Part shown: one piece after another, positions 19,951 to 56,269 of the stretch
Position numbering within the stretch: position 1 is the first letter of the stretch
Layout: each line of letters starts with the position of its first letter
DNA from: an uncultured Bacilli bacterium
Lineage (GTDB): Bacteria > Bacillota_I > Bacilli_A > RF39 > UBA660
Length of the DNA stretch: 64,000 bases
Assembly: GCA_947631135.1 (NCBI GenBank)
Contig: CANRKE010000001.1
Location: 8,475 to 72,474 of the forward strand
Reading direction: 5' to 3'
Position numbers and translations under genes: made by a program
Notes under the pieces: model-generated
Databases searched by the model: none
What the model saw: only the letters and a program-made list of their open reading frames with translations
What the model was told of the DNA's origin: nothing

Positions 19951-21735
19951 TTAAATTTTTAATGATTTCTTTTTTGCAAATTTATTTAATAATCTTTTCA
20001 TTTTAGGAACTAATAACCCATAAAATTTGTAAATTTGGTCCTTGGTTAGTTTAGTAGATATTGGATTATTTAAATCTTTTCCATATCGAATTGCGATCAA
20101 ATCTTTTTCTTCTTCATTTAATGTTGTTAACATTTCATCTATTTCTTCTTTACTATAATCTTTAAAAAATTCATATATTGTCCTTGTTTTTTTCTTTTTC
20201 TTGTTTCCATTATTTTGCACTTGCAAATATTTTTTTTGTTGTTTTTCTTTGATGTTTTGTTCTCTAAATCTTTCTATATTTTGTCTCATCTTTTCAGGAT
20301 ATTCCGTACATTCAATTAGTTGTTCTATATATTTAGAATTTCTAATTCTATTTAATGTCCTTGCTTCTTGTTGTTGTATACTCTGTCTTGTTAGTTTGTA
20401 TTTATTTGCAATTTCTTCATAAGTCATTGGTCTTTTGTTATTATAACCAATTCTCAATAATAGTATCTCAATTTCTTTAGGCTTTAAGTGGCATTTTTCA
20501 AGTAAACTATATGTTTGTAAGTGTAAATTATGAGTTATAACTATTTCTTCTGGATTTTTATTATCAGATTGGATAATGTCATTAATTTCCCTATTATTCT
20601 CGTTTCCAATTAATGTATCTATACTTATAGTATCACTTTGAAGTTTATGTAATTTCGTTGCTTCTGATACTGATATACTCATTTCATTTGCTATTTCATT
20701 TATTGTGGGAGTTCTACCTAATTGATCTTCTAATTTTGTTATTGTTTTTTTATATATGCCAAGTTTTTGATATATATAATCAGGTATTCTTATATTTCTT
20801 GCTTTATTAGCAATAGCTCTTGTCATTGCTTGTCTTATCCAATGAATTGCATAAGTTGAAAATTTATAACCTTTATTTACATTGTATTTATCTACTGCTG
20901 TCATTAGTCCTATATTTCCTTCTTGTATAAGATCCAAAAAGGATAATCCCCTATCTGTGTATTTTTTAGCAATACTAACAACTAATTTTAGATTGCTTTC
21001 GATAAATAAATTTTTTGCTTTTTTATCGCCATTTGCTATTCTTGTAGCAAGATCTTTTTCTTGTTGAATAGATAATATTGGATATTTACCTATTTCATTT
21101 AAATATAATTTAATACTATCATTCAATATTAACTCTTTTACTTTGCTATCGTCTAAATCTTCATTTTCTTTAATTTCAATATTGTTTAACATGCAATAAG
21201 CATCTATTGATAACACTAATATATTGTCATCAAATATCTTTTCTACTTTTCCTAAAATTATTTGGTTTCTATAATTTTTAAAGATTAACTCTATTGTTTT
21301 ATTAAACGCATTATTTTTGTTTATTAAATCAATTAATAAATCTGGATCTATAATATAATTATAGGTTCCTAAAAATTCGTTAAACTTATTAATATTTTTA
21401 AAAGATTCTTTATAATTGTTAACATCTATAAAATTTTTATTAATATAATTGTTTAATACATCAAATGATGTTTCTGATTTACTCATTAATTTTTTAACTT
21501 TCTTTGATATCTGTAATTCTATTTTATTTTTTATAAAATCTATATAATCTACATCCCCCTTATATACTAGTTTCGAATTACTTATTTCTTTCATTACTAA
21601 TTCATAAAAATCATTATCATTTATTTCAATATAACTAAATGTAGAATATATATCATTAATAATTGGTAATAATATATTATATATTTTTTTAGAATCTAAT
21701 TGCTTAATGTTATTATAATTAAGATTCATACACAT
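19951..21735 (-). CDS. RNA polymerase sigma-70 family factor, RpoD/SigA-like, atypically long (594 aa)
   Basis: Region 1.2 (KLYLNEIGKYPILS), region 2 (DLIQEGNIGLMTAVDKYNVNKGYKFSTYAIHWIRQAMTRAIANKARNIRIP), region 3 and region 4 (MTYEEIANKYKLTRQSIQQQEARTLNRIR) all recognisable. Flanked by ~190-aa N-terminal and ~130-aa C-terminal extensions. Confidence 0.8.
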   Translation of the reverse strand: MCMNLNYNNIKQLDSKKIYNILLPIINDIYSTFSYIEINDNDFYELVMKEISNSKLVYKGDVDYIDFIKNKIELQISKKVKKLMSKSETSFDVLNNYINKNFIDVNNYKESFKNINKFNEFLGTYNYIIDPDLLIDLINKNNAFNKTIELIFKNYRNQIILGKVEKIFDDNILVLSIDAYCMLNNIEIKENEDLDDSKVKELILNDSIKLYLNEIGKYPILSIQQEKDLATRIANGDKKAKNLFIESNLKLVVSIAKKYTDRGLSFLDLIQEGNIGLMTAVDKYNVNKGYKFSTYAIHWIRQAMTRAIANKARNIRIPDYIYQKLGIYKKTITKLEDQLGRTPTINEIANEMSISVSEATKLHKLQSDTISIDTLIGNENNREINDIIQSDNKNPEEIVITHNLHLQTYSLLEKCHLKPKEIEILLLRIGYNNKRPMTYEEIANKYKLTRQSIQQQEARTLNRIRNSKYIEQLIECTEYPEKMRQNIERFREQNIKEKQQKKYLQVQNNGNKKKKKTRTIYEFFKDYSKEEIDEMLTTLNEEEKDLIAIRYGKDLNNPISTKLTKDQIYKFYGLLVPKMKRLLNKFAKKKSLKI

Positions 21736-23537: not shown

Positions 23538-24806
23538 TTATATTTCTTCTAAACTTATTTTAGCACCTACATTACTTAATTTATCTATAATTTTTTCATA
23601 TCCTCTCAATATGTGTTCTACGTTTTCAATTGTTGTTGTTCCTTTAGCAATTAATCCTGCTAATATAAGACATGCACCTGCTCTTAAATCTGTTGCAACA
23701 ACCTTTTTACCAATTAATGGAGTAGGTCCTTTTATTAAAGCAACTTTATCATTAACTGTAATATTAGCTCCCATTTTGTTTAAATACTCAACATTCATAA
23801 ATCTATTTTCCCAAACTGTTTCTTCAACTGAACTAGTACCTTTACATTGTGTTAAAAGTGTAGTTAATGGTTGTTGTAAGTCAGTAGGAAATCCTGGATA
23901 AACTAAAGTTTTTATATTTGCACTTTTTAATTTATCACATTTACTTACTATTACATAATCACTACCTATTTCTATTGGTACACCTATTTCTGATAATTTA
24001 GATGTTAATGATTCAACATGATCGGGTATAATATTATTTATTTTTAATTTATCACCCATTAAAGCTCCAGCTATTATATATGTACCAGCTTCTATTCTGT
24101 CAGGTATAACTTCATGGAATGAACTTTTTAATTTTTTTACACCTTCAATTTTTATTTCACTAGTACCAGCACCTGTTATTTTCGCACCCATTGTATTTAG
24201 GAAAGTTGCTACATTAACTATCTCTGGTTCTTTAGCTGCGTTTTCTATAATTGTTGTACCATTTGCAAGTGTTCCTGCTAACATTATATTTATTGTTGCT
24301 CCTACACTTGCTATATCTAAATAAATATTTGTTCCTTTTAATTCATCTGCTTCTACAATATATTTGTTTCCATCAACTGATACTTTTGCTCCTAATCTTT
24401 CAAATCCTTTTAAATGTAGATTAATAGGTCTTTCTCCTATTTTGCACCCACCAGGAAAATACATTTCTACTTTTTTATATTTAGAAAGTAAAGCTCCCAT
24501 AAAATAGTAAGATGCTCTTAATTTCTTTGATATTTCCTCAGGTATTTCTTTATTTTCTATTCCTGTAGAATCAATAGTCATCGTATCTTCACTAAGATTA
24601 ACTTTTGCACCTAAATACTCTAAAATTTCTATTAAAGAAGTTCTATCTGATATTTGTGGTACATTAAAGATTGTAGCAGTTCCACTACATAATATAGCCG
24701 CAGGTATTAATGCAACCGCACTATTTTTAGCTCCCCCTATGTTAATTGTTCCAGAAAGTGTATGGCCTCCCTCAACTATTATTTTTTTCAATTTTATCAA
24801 CTCCAA
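23538..24806 (-). CDS. murA: UDP-N-acetylglucosamine 1-carboxyvinyltransferase
   Basis: Strong homology along its length (KNSAVALIPA, catalytic Cys region). Confidence 0.9.
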   Translation of the reverse strand: MELIKLKKIIVEGGHTLSGTINIGGAKNSAVALIPAAILCSGTATIFNVPQISDRTSLIEILEYLGAKVNLSEDTMTIDSTGIENKEIPEEISKKLRASYYFMGALLSKYKKVEMYFPGGCKIGERPINLHLKGFERLGAKVSVDGNKYIVEADELKGTNIYLDIASVGATINIMLAGTLANGTTIIENAAKEPEIVNVATFLNTMGAKITGAGTSEIKIEGVKKLKSSFHEVIPDRIEAGTYIIAGALMGDKLKINNIIPDHVESLTSKLSEIGVPIEIGSDYVIVSKCDKLKSANIKTLVYPGFPTDLQQPLTTLLTQCKGTSSVEETVWENRFMNVEYLNKMGANITVNDKVALIKGPTPLIGKKVVATDLRAGACLILAGLIAKGTTTIENVEHILRGYEKIIDKLSNVGAKISLEEI

Positions 24807-25033
24807 TTAAATTATAACATATAAAGTTCTAATTCTATTATATTTATATTATATTTTTGTCTTTTTGACATTAAATAATTAATAATTTATATATTATTAT
24901 AAAATTGAAATTTTTTCAATAACTTTTAATTATTATTTTCATAATTATTATGCGTTTTATGAAGAATTGTGATTATCTATAAAATGATAAAATTTGAATT
25001 GAAATATTTTGATAGTAATATATTTATTAAACA

Positions 25034-25822
25034 TCATCTGAATGTTATTATTCCTTGATCTAGTAATATATACGAAATAAATGAAAGAAGTGTATAGTTA
25101 TTATTTTCTTTATAAATTTTTTCTTCTTTTTCAAATACATCTATATTTATATTTTTTATATCATCTATATTAAAATTATCAATTCCTAAATTTTTTAATT
25201 GCTTAATCATTTCTAATGTAGCTCTTTGAATTTTATATTTATCTATTAAATTAATATTATAATTATTGGATTTGACATAATTTTTTATATTTTCATTAAC
25301 AATTTTTTTATCTTTTTCAAAACATGATATAGTATAAGCTTCAGTACATGGGTAGCTCAATAATAATCCATTTTCAAATTCATCATTACAATATGAATTA
25401 TTTAATTTTTTTAATAATTTTCTTACTATATTTACTTTATTTGATTTATTATCTCTATCACAAATATAATACACAGGAATATTTTTGATATCTAATGAAT
25501 ATTTTTCATAAAGCATTTTATATAATTCATTTCTATATTTATCATCATCTATAATTGAACCAATGTTTGAATTTTTAGTATTTATTATTATAACCCTCTG
25601 ATTATTATTATCTTTTATAACAAATTCATTATATTCTTTAAATTCATTTTGATTTCTACTTTTAGTAACTAATTTATAATGTAGTAATTTTCTAAATATT
25701 TGATTGAATAAAGAAAATTCATAACTAGCCCCCTCAACAACTAAAACAATTGTATTAATTTTCTTCTTTATGTTAATCTTTAAAGATTTTATTGTATCTT
25801 GGAATTCCATCAAATACTCCAT
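25034..25822 (-). CDS. TOPRIM-like (RloB/AbiLii/AriB-like) protein, partner of the upstream ATPase
   Basis: N-terminal IVLVVEGASYE (conserved Toprim Glu) and downstream YYICDRDNK (DxD). Overlaps the ATPase gene by ~50 nt (operon). Confidence 0.5.
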   Translation of the reverse strand: MEYLMEFQDTIKSLKINIKKKINTIVLVVEGASYEFSLFNQIFRKLLHYKLVTKSRNQNEFKEYNEFVIKDNNNQRVIIINTKNSNIGSIIDDDKYRNELYKMLYEKYSLDIKNIPVYYICDRDNKSNKVNIVRKLLKKLNNSYCNDEFENGLLLSYPCTEAYTISCFEKDKKIVNENIKNYVKSNNYNINLIDKYKIQRATLEMIKQLKNLGIDNFNIDDIKNINIDVFEKEEKIYKENNNYTLLSFISYILLDQGIITFR

Positions 25823-26924
25823 TTAAATACATTTTTTGAGTATTTTGTGCTTCTCTAGGCATTTCATCTGAAAATCTTTTTAGTGTACTACCTTTTTTTC
25901 CTTTAAAAGATACAGAGTATACTTGATCAGGTCTAATTATTGTATTATTTAATATGTTAGTTGAATGAGATGTAAAAAATATTTGAGAATTATTTGAATA
26001 ATGATTAAAATATTTAATAAGACACTCTTCTAGTTCGTTATGAAAACCACTACTAAACTCATCTAGAATAATCATACAATCTTTTTTTATTGCATGAAGA
26101 AATATAGGTAAAAGATTAATTAGGGTATTATTTCCAATGGATTCAAAAACTTCTGGTATATAAATATCAGTACCTTCCTTTAAGAAAGAAATAAATTTAT
26201 TATCCTTTGATTGAGCATTAAAAGATTCATTTTTATTTGGTGTTTTTGAATCATATGCAATCTTTTGTTTATAATTTATTTTATCAAAAAAATTATTTAT
26301 TTCGTCAGTACCTATTTCTTCTAAATATTCGTGTGCTAAAAGTTTATTATTATTGTAATTAAAAATTTGTCTTGTATAGCAATTTATGTATATAGAATTT
26401 TTTAAAAATTCAAACCATTTAAGTAATAATTTATCATCATAAAAATGTGTATCAAAATATATTCTTCTTAAGAACAACAATTTATCCGATAAATTATCAA
26501 AATTCTTTTTTTCATCATAATTAAACTCTGCACTATTTCCAACTCTATTAATTATTGTTTTATTATTAAATGTTAATTTTTCTTTTGTAATTTTATTAAT
26601 TGTAAATTCTATTTCATAATCTATATTTGCATCATCAACAATGAAAAAATATTTTAAACTATAATTTTCTTTTTTTGTATAAAAACTTTTATTATACATA
26701 AAATTTATCTCATTATTACTAAATAATAGATCTAAAAGAAAAGTAATTGCTTTTAAAATTTGAGTTTTCCCTGATGCATTTTCTCCTACAAAAAGAGCTC
26801 CTTTTAAAATTCTATTTGCACCTACATTTTCTTTTTCTAGAAATTTATAATTTGTTGCTGAAAAATCAATTTCTGTTTCATTAATGAAAGTTGTAAAATT
26901 ATTTAAAATTATTTTTTCTAACAT
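25773..26924 (-). CDS. AAA_21/ABC-type ATPase (OLD-family-like; AbiLi/AriA-like)
   Basis: Walker A GENASGKTQILKAI; Walker B MIILDEFSSGFH; H-loop-like FFTSHS. Confidence 0.65.
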   Translation of the reverse strand: MLEKIILNNFTTFINETEIDFSATNYKFLEKENVGANRILKGALFVGENASGKTQILKAITFLLDLLFSNNEINFMYNKSFYTKKENYSLKYFFIVDDANIDYEIEFTINKITKEKLTFNNKTIINRVGNSAEFNYDEKKNFDNLSDKLLFLRRIYFDTHFYDDKLLLKWFEFLKNSIYINCYTRQIFNYNNNKLLAHEYLEEIGTDEINNFFDKINYKQKIAYDSKTPNKNESFNAQSKDNKFISFLKEGTDIYIPEVFESIGNNTLINLLPIFLHAIKKDCMIILDEFSSGFHNELEECLIKYFNHYSNNSQIFFTSHSTNILNNTIIRPDQVYSVSFKGKKGSTLKRFSDEMPREAQNTQKMYLNGVFDGIPRYNKIFKD

Positions 26925-26947
26925 TTTATCTCCTCCTTAATAACATT

Positions 26948-27019
26948 ATAACACATTAATGTAAAAAAATTACATTTATAATTAAAAAAATGTAATTTTT
27001 TTACACCAACATGTGTTAT
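26948..27019. terminator. Large imperfect palindrome (~30-nt arms): likely bidirectional terminator or operator
   Basis: ATAACACATTAATGTAAAAAAATTACATTT ... AAATGTAATTTTTTTACACCAACATGTGTTAT; lies between the mntP 3' end and the ATPase gene start. Confidence 0.4.
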
Positions 27020-27043
27020 GCGATTTAATAATAGTAATTATTT

Positions 27044-27580
27044 TTATTTTATAAAAAAGTATATACCTAATAAAATTAATACAATTCCTCCAATTATTCC
27101 TGCTGTTCTTCCATATTTATCTGATAATTTATTGCCTAACTTAACTCCCATATAGGTGAACAAAAAACTACATACGCTAAATGATGAGAGAGCAAATAAA
27201 ATATTATCTGTCATTAAATTTAATCCTAATCCTGTAGAAAATGAATCTAAACTAACAGAAAAAGCAAATAGTAACATACCACCAAAACTTAATAAAAATC
27301 TTTTTTCTTCATTTTTTATTGAACTTATAATCATATCAATACCAATTATAGATAATATCATAAGTAGTATATATTTACTATCTACTATTATATGTTCTAT
27401 TATTACATTTCCTATATTAAGACCTATAAATGGCATTATAAAATGAAATATACCAACAATAATTGATAATGTATAAACTTGTTTTTTTGTAACATTCATA
27501 GTACCAAAACATAGTGATAATGAAAAAGTATCCATCGATAAAGAAACAGCTAATAATAAAATTGTTAGTAACTCTTGCAT
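27044..27580 (-). CDS. mntP: Manganese efflux pump MntP family (DUF204)
   Basis: Multi-TM protein with LSMDTFSLSL motif; start at MQELLT. Confidence 0.6.
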   Translation of the reverse strand: MQELLTILLLAVSLSMDTFSLSLCFGTMNVTKKQVYTLSIIVGIFHFIMPFIGLNIGNVIIEHIIVDSKYILLMILSIIGIDMIISSIKNEEKRFLLSFGGMLLFAFSVSLDSFSTGLGLNLMTDNILFALSSFSVCSFLFTYMGVKLGNKLSDKYGRTAGIIGGIVLILLGIYFFIK

Positions 27581-27626
27581 ATAAGTGCCTCCTAACAAAT
27601 TTTATTATTAAATTCTAAAATTTATA

Positions 27627-28154
27627 CTAAAAATATTTTTCAATAAGTTCCTTAGTAAAAAACTTATATTCTACTTCATCACTTTCTTCTGCTTCAATTA
27701 AGCATAATGGTGGGAATAATACACACCAAAAGTTTTCACCTTCACCTTTTCCTATTGTTATTTTTAATGATTCATAATTTCCCTTATTATATTTAACTCC
27801 CTTATATGTTTTCTCAGGAAAATAATTATAGCCATAATTTATTTTATATGTACTTACATATTCTTTTTCAGCAAATATTCTTTCAACACTTTTATTTAAA
27901 ACATCAATATTATCTTTTATAATTTGTCTAGATTCTGTAATTGATTTACTATCTTTAAGTAATTCATATAAACTTTTTTGAACTTCGTTTGATACACTAT
28001 ATTTTACGTTTTGATCATAAGCAGAATTACTGTTTGCAATTACTCTAAACCTTATTGCTTCTTTTGGTATTACTACCTCTCCTGCTTCTACATTTTTATT
28101 TATTCCAAATATAATTAATAAACATATTGGAATTAGTATAAATAATTTTTTCAT
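27627..28154 (-). CDS. spoIIR: Stage II sporulation protein R
   Basis: Signal peptide; IRFRVIANSNS and GEGENFWCVLFPPLCL match B. subtilis SpoIIR (IRLRILANSDS; GDGANWWCVLFPPLCF). Confidence 0.8.
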   Translation of the reverse strand: MKKLFILIPICLLIIFGINKNVEAGEVVIPKEAIRFRVIANSNSAYDQNVKYSVSNEVQKSLYELLKDSKSITESRQIIKDNIDVLNKSVERIFAEKEYVSTYKINYGYNYFPEKTYKGVKYNKGNYESLKITIGKGEGENFWCVLFPPLCLIEAEESDEVEYKFFTKELIEKYF

Positions 28155-54910: not shown

Positions 54911-56269
54911 ATGAATGTTAATAGTATTTGGAATAATTTTTTGGAGAACATTAAATTACAAATTACAAATCTATCTTATGAAACTTGGTTTAAGAATACT
55001 AAGTTATTAGAAATTAAAGATGGTGTAGCTAAGATAGTTGTTGAAACTTATGTACATAAAAAACATTTACTTGAAAACTATACTGATTTAATAATTGATA
55101 CTTTAAATCAAGTAACTGGTACAAACTTTTATATTGAATTTATATTGGAAGATGAACTAAATAATGAGAATGCAGAAATAGATGTAGATTTAATTGGTGT
55201 ACCTAATAGTAAGAATAGAATAGAATCAAATCTAAATTCCAAATATGATTTTGATTCATTCATTGTTGGTGAAAGTAATAGATTTGCACATGCTGCTGCT
55301 TTATCTGTTGCGGAAAATCCTGGTAAGATGTATAATCCATTATTTATATATGGAAAGAGTGGTTTAGGTAAAACTCATTTAATGCATGCGATTGGAAATT
55401 ATATCGATGCTAATTCTTCAAAAACTGTTTTATATGTTACTAGTGATCAATTTATTAATGATTTTGTTGAAATTAATAAAAAAGATAAAAATGATAATAA
55501 TTATGATTATGTTGAATATTTTAAAAATAAATATAGAAATATAGATGTATTAATTATTGATGATATACAATTTTTAGGAAGTGCAGCTCAAACTCAACAA
55601 GAATTTTTCCACACTTTTAATAAATTGTATGACGATAATAAACAGATTATAATATCATCAGATAGATCACCAGACGATTTAAAAATTCTAGAAGATAGAT
55701 TAAGAACAAGATTTGGTTGGGGATTATCAGTTAATATTTTTCCACCTGATTTTGAACTAAGAAAAAATATATTAGTTAAAAAAATATCTGCTCAGGGAGT
55801 TAATAGTAAAATACCAAATGACGTTATTGAATATATTGCGAATAATTGTCAATCAGATGTTAGACAATTAGAGGGAGCTATAACAAGATTATTTGCATAT
55901 GCAACTATGATGAACGGAAGTGATATAACTTTAGAACTTGCAATAGAAGCTTTAAAAGATCATCTTCATAAATCAATAGGAGAAAAAAATAGTGTTAATA
56001 GAATACAAAGAATAGTATCTGATTATTATCATGTTACTGTTGAAGATTTAAAAAGTAAGAAAAGAAGTACACAAATTGCTTTTCCAAGACAAATAGCAAT
56101 GTATTTAACAAGAGTTCTTACTAATGAGTCTTTTCCTAAAATAGGAATTGAGTTTGGTGGAAGAGATCATTCAACAGTTATGCACTCAATAGATAAAATA
56201 GAAAAAGAAATAAATAAAAATAGACAATTAAAAAATATTGTTGATAAACTAAAAGAACAAGCAAGATAA
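54911..56269 (+). CDS. dnaA: Chromosomal replication initiator protein DnaA
   Basis: AAA+ Walker A GKSGLGKTHL; C-terminal DNA-binding domain (GGRDHSTVMHS). Confidence 0.95.
   Translation: MNVNSIWNNFLENIKLQITNLSYETWFKNTKLLEIKDGVAKIVVETYVHKKHLLENYTDLIIDTLNQVTGTNFYIEFILEDELNNENAEIDVDLIGVPNSKNRIESNLNSKYDFDSFIVGESNRFAHAAALSVAENPGKMYNPLFIYGKSGLGKTHLMHAIGNYIDANSSKTVLYVTSDQFINDFVEINKKDKNDNNYDYVEYFKNKYRNIDVLIIDDIQFLGSAAQTQQEFFHTFNKLYDDNKQIIISSDRSPDDLKILEDRLRTRFGWGLSVNIFPPDFELRKNILVKKISAQGVNSKIPNDVIEYIANNCQSDVRQLEGAITRLFAYATMMNGSDITLELAIEALKDHLHKSIGEKNSVNRIQRIVSDYYHVTVEDLKSKKRSTQIAFPRQIAMYLTRVLTNESFPKIGIEFGGRDHSTVMHSIDKIEKEINKNRQLKNIVDKLKEQAR

Follow-up and report, generated by a model that had tools for sequence, protein, structure and literature searches.

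To our knowledge, PARIS is the only split system of ATPase and Toprim protein whose mechanism has been solved, and the target of its nuclease is tRNA. [quoted passage not shown] RloB, a family first noticed within type I restriction-modification (R-M) loci, is related to OLD_TOPRIM, and pairs of AAA and TOPRIM proteins act as toxin-antitoxin (TA) pairs (PMC10440598). The PDC systems, for their part, are predictions made through "guilt by embedding" in BREX, DISARM or type I R-M (10.1101/2024.01.29.577857).

The pair of genes considered here lies within a stretch of 64,000 nucleotides (the window) from an uncultured Bacilli bacterium. Both genes are on the minus strand, where the preliminary description had placed them: gene 1 (25773..26924) encodes an ATPase of 383 amino acids, and gene 2 (25034..25810) a putative Toprim-type partner of 258 amino acids. 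That description had given the second protein 262 amino acids and the overlap of the two genes about 50 nt; the former is indeed the length of the longest open reading frame (25034-25822), but the likelier start is the ATG at 25810, as this has a GGAG 6 nt upstream (25817-25820), is the point at which the public gene calls begin (giving 258 amino acids), and is also where the N-termini of the homologues start to align. This brings the overlap to 38 nt (25773-25810, minus strand), a dual-coding segment formed by the 3′ end of gene 1 and the 5′ end of gene 2, and the identical 38-nt overlap is found in at least ten homologous loci (including L003, L006, L091-L094, L097, L099 and L103). The GGAG of gene 2 is contained within gene 1, and the translation of the two genes is probably coupled through this overlap.

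The neighbors are those originally named, MurA (23538-24806; PDB matches at 2e-124) on one side and MntP (27044-27598) on the other, the latter with a counterpart in another contig of the same species (L001) that is 100% identical in a tblastn comparison and carries PF02659. The AT-rich spacers are likewise there (GC 14% at 24800-25199), and the pair is situated about 28 kb from dnaA. In the window it stands alone amid housekeeping genes, with no adjacent R-M gene, and so no support comes from a defence island. A terminator scan gave no intrinsic terminators flanking the pair, and no Rfam RNA families were found in 24300-27700; repeats flanking the pair, direct or inverted, were considered as possible insertion scars, but the only matches were AT-rich and of low identity, and were therefore treated as chance.

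By its motifs and profile matches, the product of gene 1 belongs to the ABC/AAA_21 ATPases, and among these to the AbiLi / PDC-M12A type. The motifs read at the outset are all present, that is, Walker A GENASGKT (residues 46-53), Walker B ILDEF (286-290) and the H-loop TSHS (318-321), and they are conserved in 23 homologues, which keep G47-x-N-A-S-G52-K53, D288-E289 and H320. Pfam AAA_21 is matched above the cut-off (1.8e-17). The PADLOC run, which had been proposed as a check, returned AbiLi (PDLC02335) at 5.9e-45 over residues 1-380, and PDC-M12A was matched end to end (8.1e-26; residues 1-372 with profile positions 1-368 of 369), with the AriA models at 1.5e-17 and weak matches to GajA and to ATPase-Toprim models. 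PHROG 5836 is matched at 4.7e-37, and the PDB holds no relative at E <= 0.01.

Pfam gives no hit for the partner itself: RloB (PF13707) is not matched at E <= 1, and the protein falls under every curated RloB threshold. No match was obtained with NCBIfam or PHROG, nor with PDC-M12B at E 0.1, while the AbiLii profile of PADLOC is reached weakly (2.9e-4), over positions 25-117 of 170 (93 positions). In the PDB, nothing credible came from sequence or profile searches started with the protein or with two alignments of its family (A1 and A3). A weak match to Terpene_synth (E 0.006, far under the cut-off), met in the Pfam search of the pair, was rejected as noise.

It is through its family that the partner can be placed. 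The family profile collects about 490 clusters at 50% identity with E <= 0.001 (283 with <= 1e-10), and the clusters sampled are for the most part unnamed proteins from gut metagenomes that lack Pfam hits. Among the 119 representatives found with this profile at E <= 4e-36, whose pairwise identity is 24-51%, 59 match AbiLii (best 1.6e-13), 60 match PDC-M12B (best 3.7e-12) and 19 match Pfam RloB (best 6e-12), which is the sole recurrent Pfam family, none other appearing beyond chance; in addition, PDC-M25B is matched by 13 of the 27 close relatives. When a divergent member (P0147) served as the homologue query, the annotated RloB proteins were not reached. By these transitive links at the level of the family, the partner can be assigned to the AbiLii/RloB superfamily. 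Of the two options given in the preliminary description, the Toprim/RloB-like (AbiLii) one thus stands for the relatives, with the protein of the window itself reaching AbiLii at 2.9e-4 only, and the DUF4435 (AriB) one is discarded, since neither PF14491 nor the AriB model of PADLOC is matched by the protein or by any of its 119 relatives; Toprim_OLD of Pfam gave no match in the same set.

The VVEG...E and DRD motifs noticed initially correspond to V24 V25 E26 G27 ... E31 and to D118 R119 D120, and are invariant in 27 homologues. Across the 119 representatives D118 and D120 remain invariant, and conservation reaches 90% or more at E26, G27, E31, R119, S152, Y153, P154 and E157. The acidic set E26, D118-x-D120 and E157 is conserved in alignment A1 as well as in A3 (the latter too divergent to serve for the locus scan). 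This set is a Toprim signature, and in a putative nuclease it would coordinate the catalytic metal ions. In the AlphaFold2 (AF2) model (pLDDT 83.5, pTM 0.86), E26 is found just past the strand 20-25, the DxD closes the strand 113-118, and E157 opens the helix 155-164. Foldseek gave no significant match against the PDB for the full model or for the N-terminal one (1-170), and consequently the predicted Toprim fold draws on the placement of these motifs together with a single predicted viral structure, a "RloB-like protein" that is the best match in the viral library BFVD (probability 0.99, E 3e-3).

The pair had also been described as bounded by a large palindrome. This palindrome is present (26948..27019), but it forms part of the module rather than a mere boundary, and it is explained by two conserved GTA-W7-TAC boxes that travel with the module and are located at its putative promoter. 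Box 1, the distal one (26992..27004, minus strand), is an operator-like GTA-W7-TAC palindrome, GTAAAAAAATTAC within TGTAAAAAAATTACA; box 2, the proximal one (26961..26973, minus strand), is inverted with respect to box 1, reads GTAATTTTTTTAC on the operon strand, begins 31 nt after box 1, and abuts what can be read in the sequence as a putative extended -10 element, TGTTATAAT (26945..26953, minus strand), downstream of which is the ribosome-binding site AAGGAGGAG (26930-26938, minus strand). Together with the outer arms ATAACACAT and ATGTGTTAT, the two boxes make up the palindrome (inverted repeats I5 and I16), whose arms of 27 nt are 85% complementary and 10 nt apart, and whose DNA fold is computed at -19.9 kcal/mol (z -6.17 against shuffles).

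No exact matches to the boxes other than these two exist in the 64-kb window. In the related loci, 28 strict boxes fall within upstream windows that total 2,645 nt, compared with 3 in 163,687 nt elsewhere; at least one box precedes the ATPase gene in 20 of the 23 non-redundant loci. A TATAAT is aligned at the -10 position in 13 loci. The operon would have its own promoter, with two GTA-W7-TAC boxes 31-32 nt apart, and the boxes are most simply read as putative operators for autoregulation. The site of the host regulators GlnR/TnrA is TGTNA-N7-TNACA, and the boxes were considered as such sites given their similar half-sites; however, the spacer is 5 nt and not 7, and the boxes accompany the module in genomes that span 21-53% GC, and the idea was dropped. 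As a tentative extension, which we regard as possible but rather doubtful, the unit could be autoregulated by its own protein(s) or by their complex binding the twin operators, in such a way that a TA-like feedback would set expression, and could double as a release or activation switch.

The two genes are strictly associated: in all of the approximately 70 related contigs that hold the upstream DNA, an ATPase homologue is directly upstream of the partner, on the same strand. A comparison of the murA-mntP interval in relatives had been suggested in the preliminary description, and the pair is missing from this interval in 80 species-level relatives, the majority of them with fba at this place; hence it is not a universally conserved core. 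The other copies are patchily distributed, in unrelated contexts that include AbiH and an integrase, SocA/Panacea, SIR2, methyltransferases, Cas1 and CD1107-like mobile-element genes, and in most of these contexts there are no adjacent R-M genes. This absence at the murA locus of the relatives, joined to the unrelated contexts elsewhere, makes the pair accessory and mobile, and the mntP-murA interval a variable insertion spot in a reduced, uncultured, RF39-like gut Bacilli genome. The partner family was not found in phage or viral contigs, and none of 72,556 plasmids was matched by the partner in tblastn; the plasmid matches of the ATPase (~26% identity) belong to other AAA_21 systems, whose partners differ, and are uninformative.

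From all this, the pair is probably a self-contained, horizontally acquired two-gene anti-phage module, either of abortive-infection or of TA-like character, and of the AbiL / RloAB / PDC-M12 kind. The preliminary description had compared its architecture with AbiL and PARIS alike, and whereas the first comparison holds, by the AbiLi score and by the family-level matches to AbiLii and RloB, the second does not. A PARIS system would consist of the AriA ATPase and of AriB, a DUF4435 Toprim nuclease, would sense anti-restriction proteins and would cleave tRNA; it has the same two-gene arrangement of ATPase and Toprim, and the ATPase does match AriA, but with a score far below that of AbiLi, and neither the partner nor any of its 119 relatives matches DUF4435, Toprim_OLD or AriB, RloB, AbiLii and PDC-M12B being the profiles that recur in the family, for which reasons we consider this identity extremely improbable. 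As little can be said for a housekeeping pair for DNA repair, with a RecF/SbcC-like ATPase and a Toprim partner. The ATPase has weak P-loop similarities to SMC_N, RecF and SbcC, and the neighbors are housekeeping genes with dnaA about 28 kb away; but these similarities are far under the curated cut-offs, and a repair function of this type agrees poorly with a pair that is absent at the locus in 80 relatives, patchy in distribution and found in mobile contexts.

A connection with restriction, in which the genes would be an RloA/RloB-type accessory pair working with type I R-M, could be proposed from the history of the families, given that RloB was first seen within type I R-M loci (PMC10440598) and that the genes behind the PDC models reside within BREX, DISARM or type I R-M systems (10.1101/2024.01.29.577857). 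Nevertheless, with mntP and murA as neighbors in the window, and with R-M genes also missing beside most other copies, we hold this to be quite improbable. An addiction module of the TA type, with the Toprim protein as toxin and the ATPase as its neutralizer, which would stabilize its own DNA and have no role in phage defence, is somewhat less remote although still unlikely. AAA and TOPRIM_OLD pairs have been validated as toxin and antitoxin (PMC10440598), and autoregulated type II TA operons characteristically have overlapping genes behind palindromic operator-like boxes in the promoter, as is seen here. On the other hand, TA behavior and defence are not exclusive, as PARIS shows both (PMC13064643), the relatives of the pair adjoin AbiH, SIR2, methyltransferases and Cas1, and AbiL, the closest named family, was defined by a phage-resistance phenotype.

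If we accept that the pair is an anti-phage module, PARIS is likely to be the model for how it works. By this analogy, an oligomer of the ATPase would sequester the Toprim effector and serve as the infection sensor, a trigger encoded by the phage would release or activate the nuclease, and the freed nuclease would cut nucleic acid of the host or of the phage, so that the infection would be aborted. The analogy carries a mechanism over from one effector family to another that is not homologous to it. In practical terms, as the effector gene is missed by the curated domain models, an automatic annotation of defence genes may recognize one half of such a system only; and the conserved layout of putative promoter and operators offers a testable handle on the silencing of these systems.

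In comparison with the known systems, the OLD nucleases (P2 Old, and GajA of Gabija) have the same ABC ATPase and the same Toprim catalytic E/DxD/E, although in classes 1 and 2 of the OLD family a single polypeptide carries both domains, with Toprim_OLD, whereas here there are two ORFs and no Toprim_OLD match. PARIS (AriA/AriB), class 4 and OLD-like, shares the split architecture of ABC ATPase and Toprim nuclease, but the effector of the window is not DUF4435/AriB, and its ATPase is much shorter, with 383 aa (~45 kDa) compared to the 55 kDa of AriA (PMC11464382). With PDC-M12 (A and B) the ATPase aligns end to end, and PDC-M12B is matched by 60 of the partner's 119 relatives but not, at E 0.1, by the partner itself, PDC-M12 being a candidate system; with PDC-M25, the likeness is that of the 13 of 27 close relatives that match PDC-M25B. 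The twin-box promoter is without mention in the AbiL, PARIS and OLD literature cited here, which was assembled without a search aimed at this feature. The closest likeness is to AbiL of the Lactococcus lactis plasmid pND861, which, in its PADLOC model, also has two co-directional genes, an ABC/AAA_21 ATPase being followed by a small RloB-type Toprim protein, and to which the ATPase (AbiLi, 5.9e-45) and half of the partner family (AbiLii) are linked; the differences are that the partner matches AbiLii at only 2.9e-4 over part of the profile, and that AbiL is found on a lactococcal plasmid, while this pair is on the chromosome of a low-GC gut Bacilli. The pair is thus a candidate split OLD-like defence system of the AbiL/RloAB type, and not a PARIS, and as such it would add a divergent branch to this known group.

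On the minus strand of 25034–26924, between murA (23538–24806) and mntP (27044–27598), lie two overlapping ORFs, as the preliminary description had read them. Gene 1 (25773–26924) encodes an ATPase of 383 aa and begins with an ATG preceded by AAGGAGGAG; for its downstream partner, gene 2, the longest ORF (262 aa) opens at the ATG at 25822, but the ATG at 25810 is the likelier start, because a GGAG is found 6 nt upstream of it, the public gene calls begin there (258 aa), and the N-termini of the homologues align from that point. The overlap is therefore 38 nt (25773–25810) rather than the approximately 50 nt first proposed. Ten or more homologous loci keep exactly this length although their ATPases are only 50–75% identical, and this recurrence points to translational coupling of the two genes. 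The shared segment is read in two frames: one encodes the ATPase's C-terminal tail, the other the N-terminus of the Toprim protein, and both are conserved; more distant loci, such as the comparison locus L007, have a 4-nt overlap in its place.

The catalytic motifs of the ATPase are intact: it carries a Walker A (GENASGKT), a Walker B (ILDEF) and an H-loop (TSHS), and 23 homologues from other contigs keep G47-x-N-A-S-G52-K53, E261-S-x-G264-N265, D288-E289 and H320, as well as the C-terminal tail R331-P-D-Q ... K364-M-Y ... G369. The protein is an ABC-type AAA_21 ATPase (Pfam, 1.8e-17, exceeding the cut-off). Among more specific models it scores best against PADLOC AbiLi (5.9e-45), followed by the candidate PDC-M12A (8.1e-26, with an end-to-end alignment), and much more weakly against AriA of PARIS (1.5e-17), MADS mad3 and HEC-01A. 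It also matches PHROG 5836, a phage family of unknown function, at 4.7e-37 (positions 5–405 of a 1071-position profile), so larger phage proteins contain related ATPase domains.

The partner finds no match in Pfam, NCBIfam or PHROG and no sequence relative in the PDB; only PADLOC AbiLii ties it directly to a family, and weakly (2.9e-4), and its 41 close homologues are neither named nor provided with Pfam domains. A profile built from 27 close homologues reached 490 clusters at 50% identity, of which 283 scored E <= 1e-10, and 119 full-length representatives were scanned individually: AbiLii was matched by 59 (best 1.6e-13), PDC-M12B by 60 (best 3.7e-12) and RloB, the only recurring Pfam family, by 19 (best 6e-12), while DUF4435 (AriB) and Toprim_OLD had zero matches among them. 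By these matches the partner is assigned to the RloB/AbiLii superfamily, as a divergent branch placed transitively, not directly. No member of the family was found in viral contigs.

The partner also has the conserved acidic set of the Toprim type. D118 and D120 are invariant in the 119 sequences (24–51% identical to the window protein), and conservation reaches 90% or more at G19, E26, G27, E31, R119, N124, G148, L150, S152, Y153, P154 and E157. A Toprim domain places a glutamate after the first strand and DxD after a later one; in a confident AlphaFold2 model (pLDDT 83.5, pTM 0.86) E26 lies directly past strand 20–25, D118-x-D120 ends strand 113–118, and E157 starts helix 155–164. The Toprim fold previously suggested is supported by the motif geometry and by the top Foldseek match in a viral predicted-structure library, an 'RloB-like protein' (probability 0.99, E 3e-3, target TM 0.50), but no solved structure gave a significant match, so that the structure prediction neither refutes the fold nor confirms it cleanly.

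The pair is accessory and not part of a clade-wide core. One neighbour is MurA (PDB matches, 2e-124) and the other MntP (PF02659 in the equivalent gene of the same-species contig L001, where the mntP tblastn match is 100% identical), and the spacer downstream of the pair has 14% GC. The murA neighbourhood was compared with that of 80 relatives among the uncultured gut Bacilli, each a species-level genome (RF39-like MAGs, their MurA 57–78% identical); none has the pair between mntP and murA, and most have there a class II fructose-bisphosphate aldolase gene (fba), which is absent throughout the 64-kb window. The interval upstream of murA (24807–27043 in the window) holds other insertions in several of these relatives, namely an IS110 transposase in L066, an ISAs1-like DDE element in L009, an rve integrase in L044 and a PDDEXK_2 protein in L020, and is therefore a variable insertion spot. 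At the mntP–fba spot of a further relative (L022, 2911–5897, strand opposite murA) stand three genes that may form a further cassette, accessory or defensive; they encode a nucleotidyltransferase of 411 aa (Polbeta/NTP_transf_2), a peptidase of 222 aa (Peptidase_S51) and a protein of 354 aa that contains Cys clusters and matches no Pfam family.

Elsewhere the pair stands in unrelated places: in L003 beside genes for SocA/Panacea, AAA_14-DUF4143 and PDDEXK_2, in L006 between those for a Tad pilus and for glycosyltransferases, and in L007 beside AbiH and an integrase. Among the neighbours in 21 loci are mobile-element genes (CD1107-like, NlpC/P60 and HTH_3, four each), defence genes (SIR2_2, type II methyltransferases, Cas1) and also housekeeping genes. 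A scan of metagenomes gave 74 loci, and wherever the contig holds upstream DNA, the gene directly upstream of the partner encodes an ATPase homologue. Gene pairing and coupling are strict, and the module is mobile.

Two further observations concern the window at large. DnaA is encoded at 54911–56269 (PDB match 3e-126) and ORF orientation changes from minus to plus near 53.6–53.9 kb, so that the window probably spans the replication origin; the module lies some 28 kb from dnaA, co-oriented with replication. On the minus strand at 19951–21735, the translation of a 594-aa sigma-70-like ORF has long extra terminal regions: about 200 aa ahead of the region-2-like segment, and a lysine-rich C-terminal tail, after which a second stretch resembles region 4.

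The large palindrome described as bounding the pair does exist (26948–27019, z = -6.2 versus shuffles), but it belongs to the module as a conserved regulatory region, being formed by two TGTAAAAAAATTACA copies, inverted to each other, at the putative promoter of gene 1. Exact matches to GTAAAAAAATTAC in the window are confined to the distal box 1 (26992–27004) and the proximal box 2 (26961–26973). This box, GTA-W7-TAC and often (A)GTGTA-A7-TACAC(T), also precedes the ATPase gene elsewhere, whatever the context or GC of the locus (21–53%), and strict boxes number 28 in upstream windows (-130 to -15) totalling 2,645 nt versus 3 in the remaining 163,687 nt of locus DNA, a count across related loci and not of independent events. 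At least one strict box occurs in 20 of 23 non-redundant loci, and the other three have sequences close to it, differing by a single mismatch or by a spacer shortened by one base. As the ATPases are down to 39% identical, neutral non-coding DNA would not persist. In 13 aligned upstream regions the common order is TTGAC(A/T), a 17-nt spacer, TATAAT, box 1, about 16 nt, box 2, 5–6 nt, (TG-n-)TATAAT, ribosome-binding site and ATG. This putative promoter–operator arrangement travels with the module, at 26945–27019 in the window and ahead of the ATPase genes in L003, L006, L007 and L091–L164. The distal -35/-10 is missing from the window copy, which does have both boxes and the proximal TGTTATAAT, so its homology to other copies seems to begin at box 1, at about 27005.

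In two-box loci the box starts are 31–32 nt apart, box 2 takes either orientation depending on the locus, and in higher-GC loci TGTA...TACA changes symmetrically to CGTA...TACG. A palindrome overlapping a promoter in either orientation would most simply be a candidate operator for a dimeric DNA-binding protein, and since the boxes travel with the module without a separate regulator gene, it is plausible that the putative binder is encoded by the module itself. The boxes could conceivably act instead as an RNA or DNA hairpin; no Rfam family matches within 24300–27700. An operator role is open to direct testing.

In PARIS, AriB is bound in a scaffold made by the ATPase AriA until a phage anti-restriction protein triggers its release, whereupon AriB dimers cleave tRNA-Lys (PMC11464382); in AAA + TOPRIM_OLD pairs the two proteins act as antitoxin and toxin (PMC10440598). 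From these two precedents it is proposed that the ATPase would sense infection and, as an antitoxin, sequester its partner, the Toprim protein being a putative nuclease effector set free on infection. That the pair is a defence or TA-type ATPase–Toprim module of the AbiL kind, one of the two identities in the preliminary description, is concluded with good confidence, given the AbiLi match of the ATPase and the AbiLii/RloB matches of the partner family; the detailed PARIS-like logic, drawn by analogy, commands less. PARIS itself, the other identity then suggested, shares the ABC ATPase and TOPRIM plan, but is rejected on the effector family, since neither the partner nor the 119 representatives match AriB. 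Nor is the pair a fused OLD nuclease: here the two domains lie in separate ORFs.

The twin-box promoter and the 38-nt dual-coding overlap find no mention in the AbiL- and PARIS-related literature cited, a statement made without a targeted search. [quoted passage not shown] PDC-M12 has already been catalogued as an untested candidate (10.1101/2024.01.29.577857). Thus the system type is not new, and will be familiar to defence-system specialists: the pair would work like AbiL, RloAB and PDC-M12, and it is with these that the family-level tests group it.
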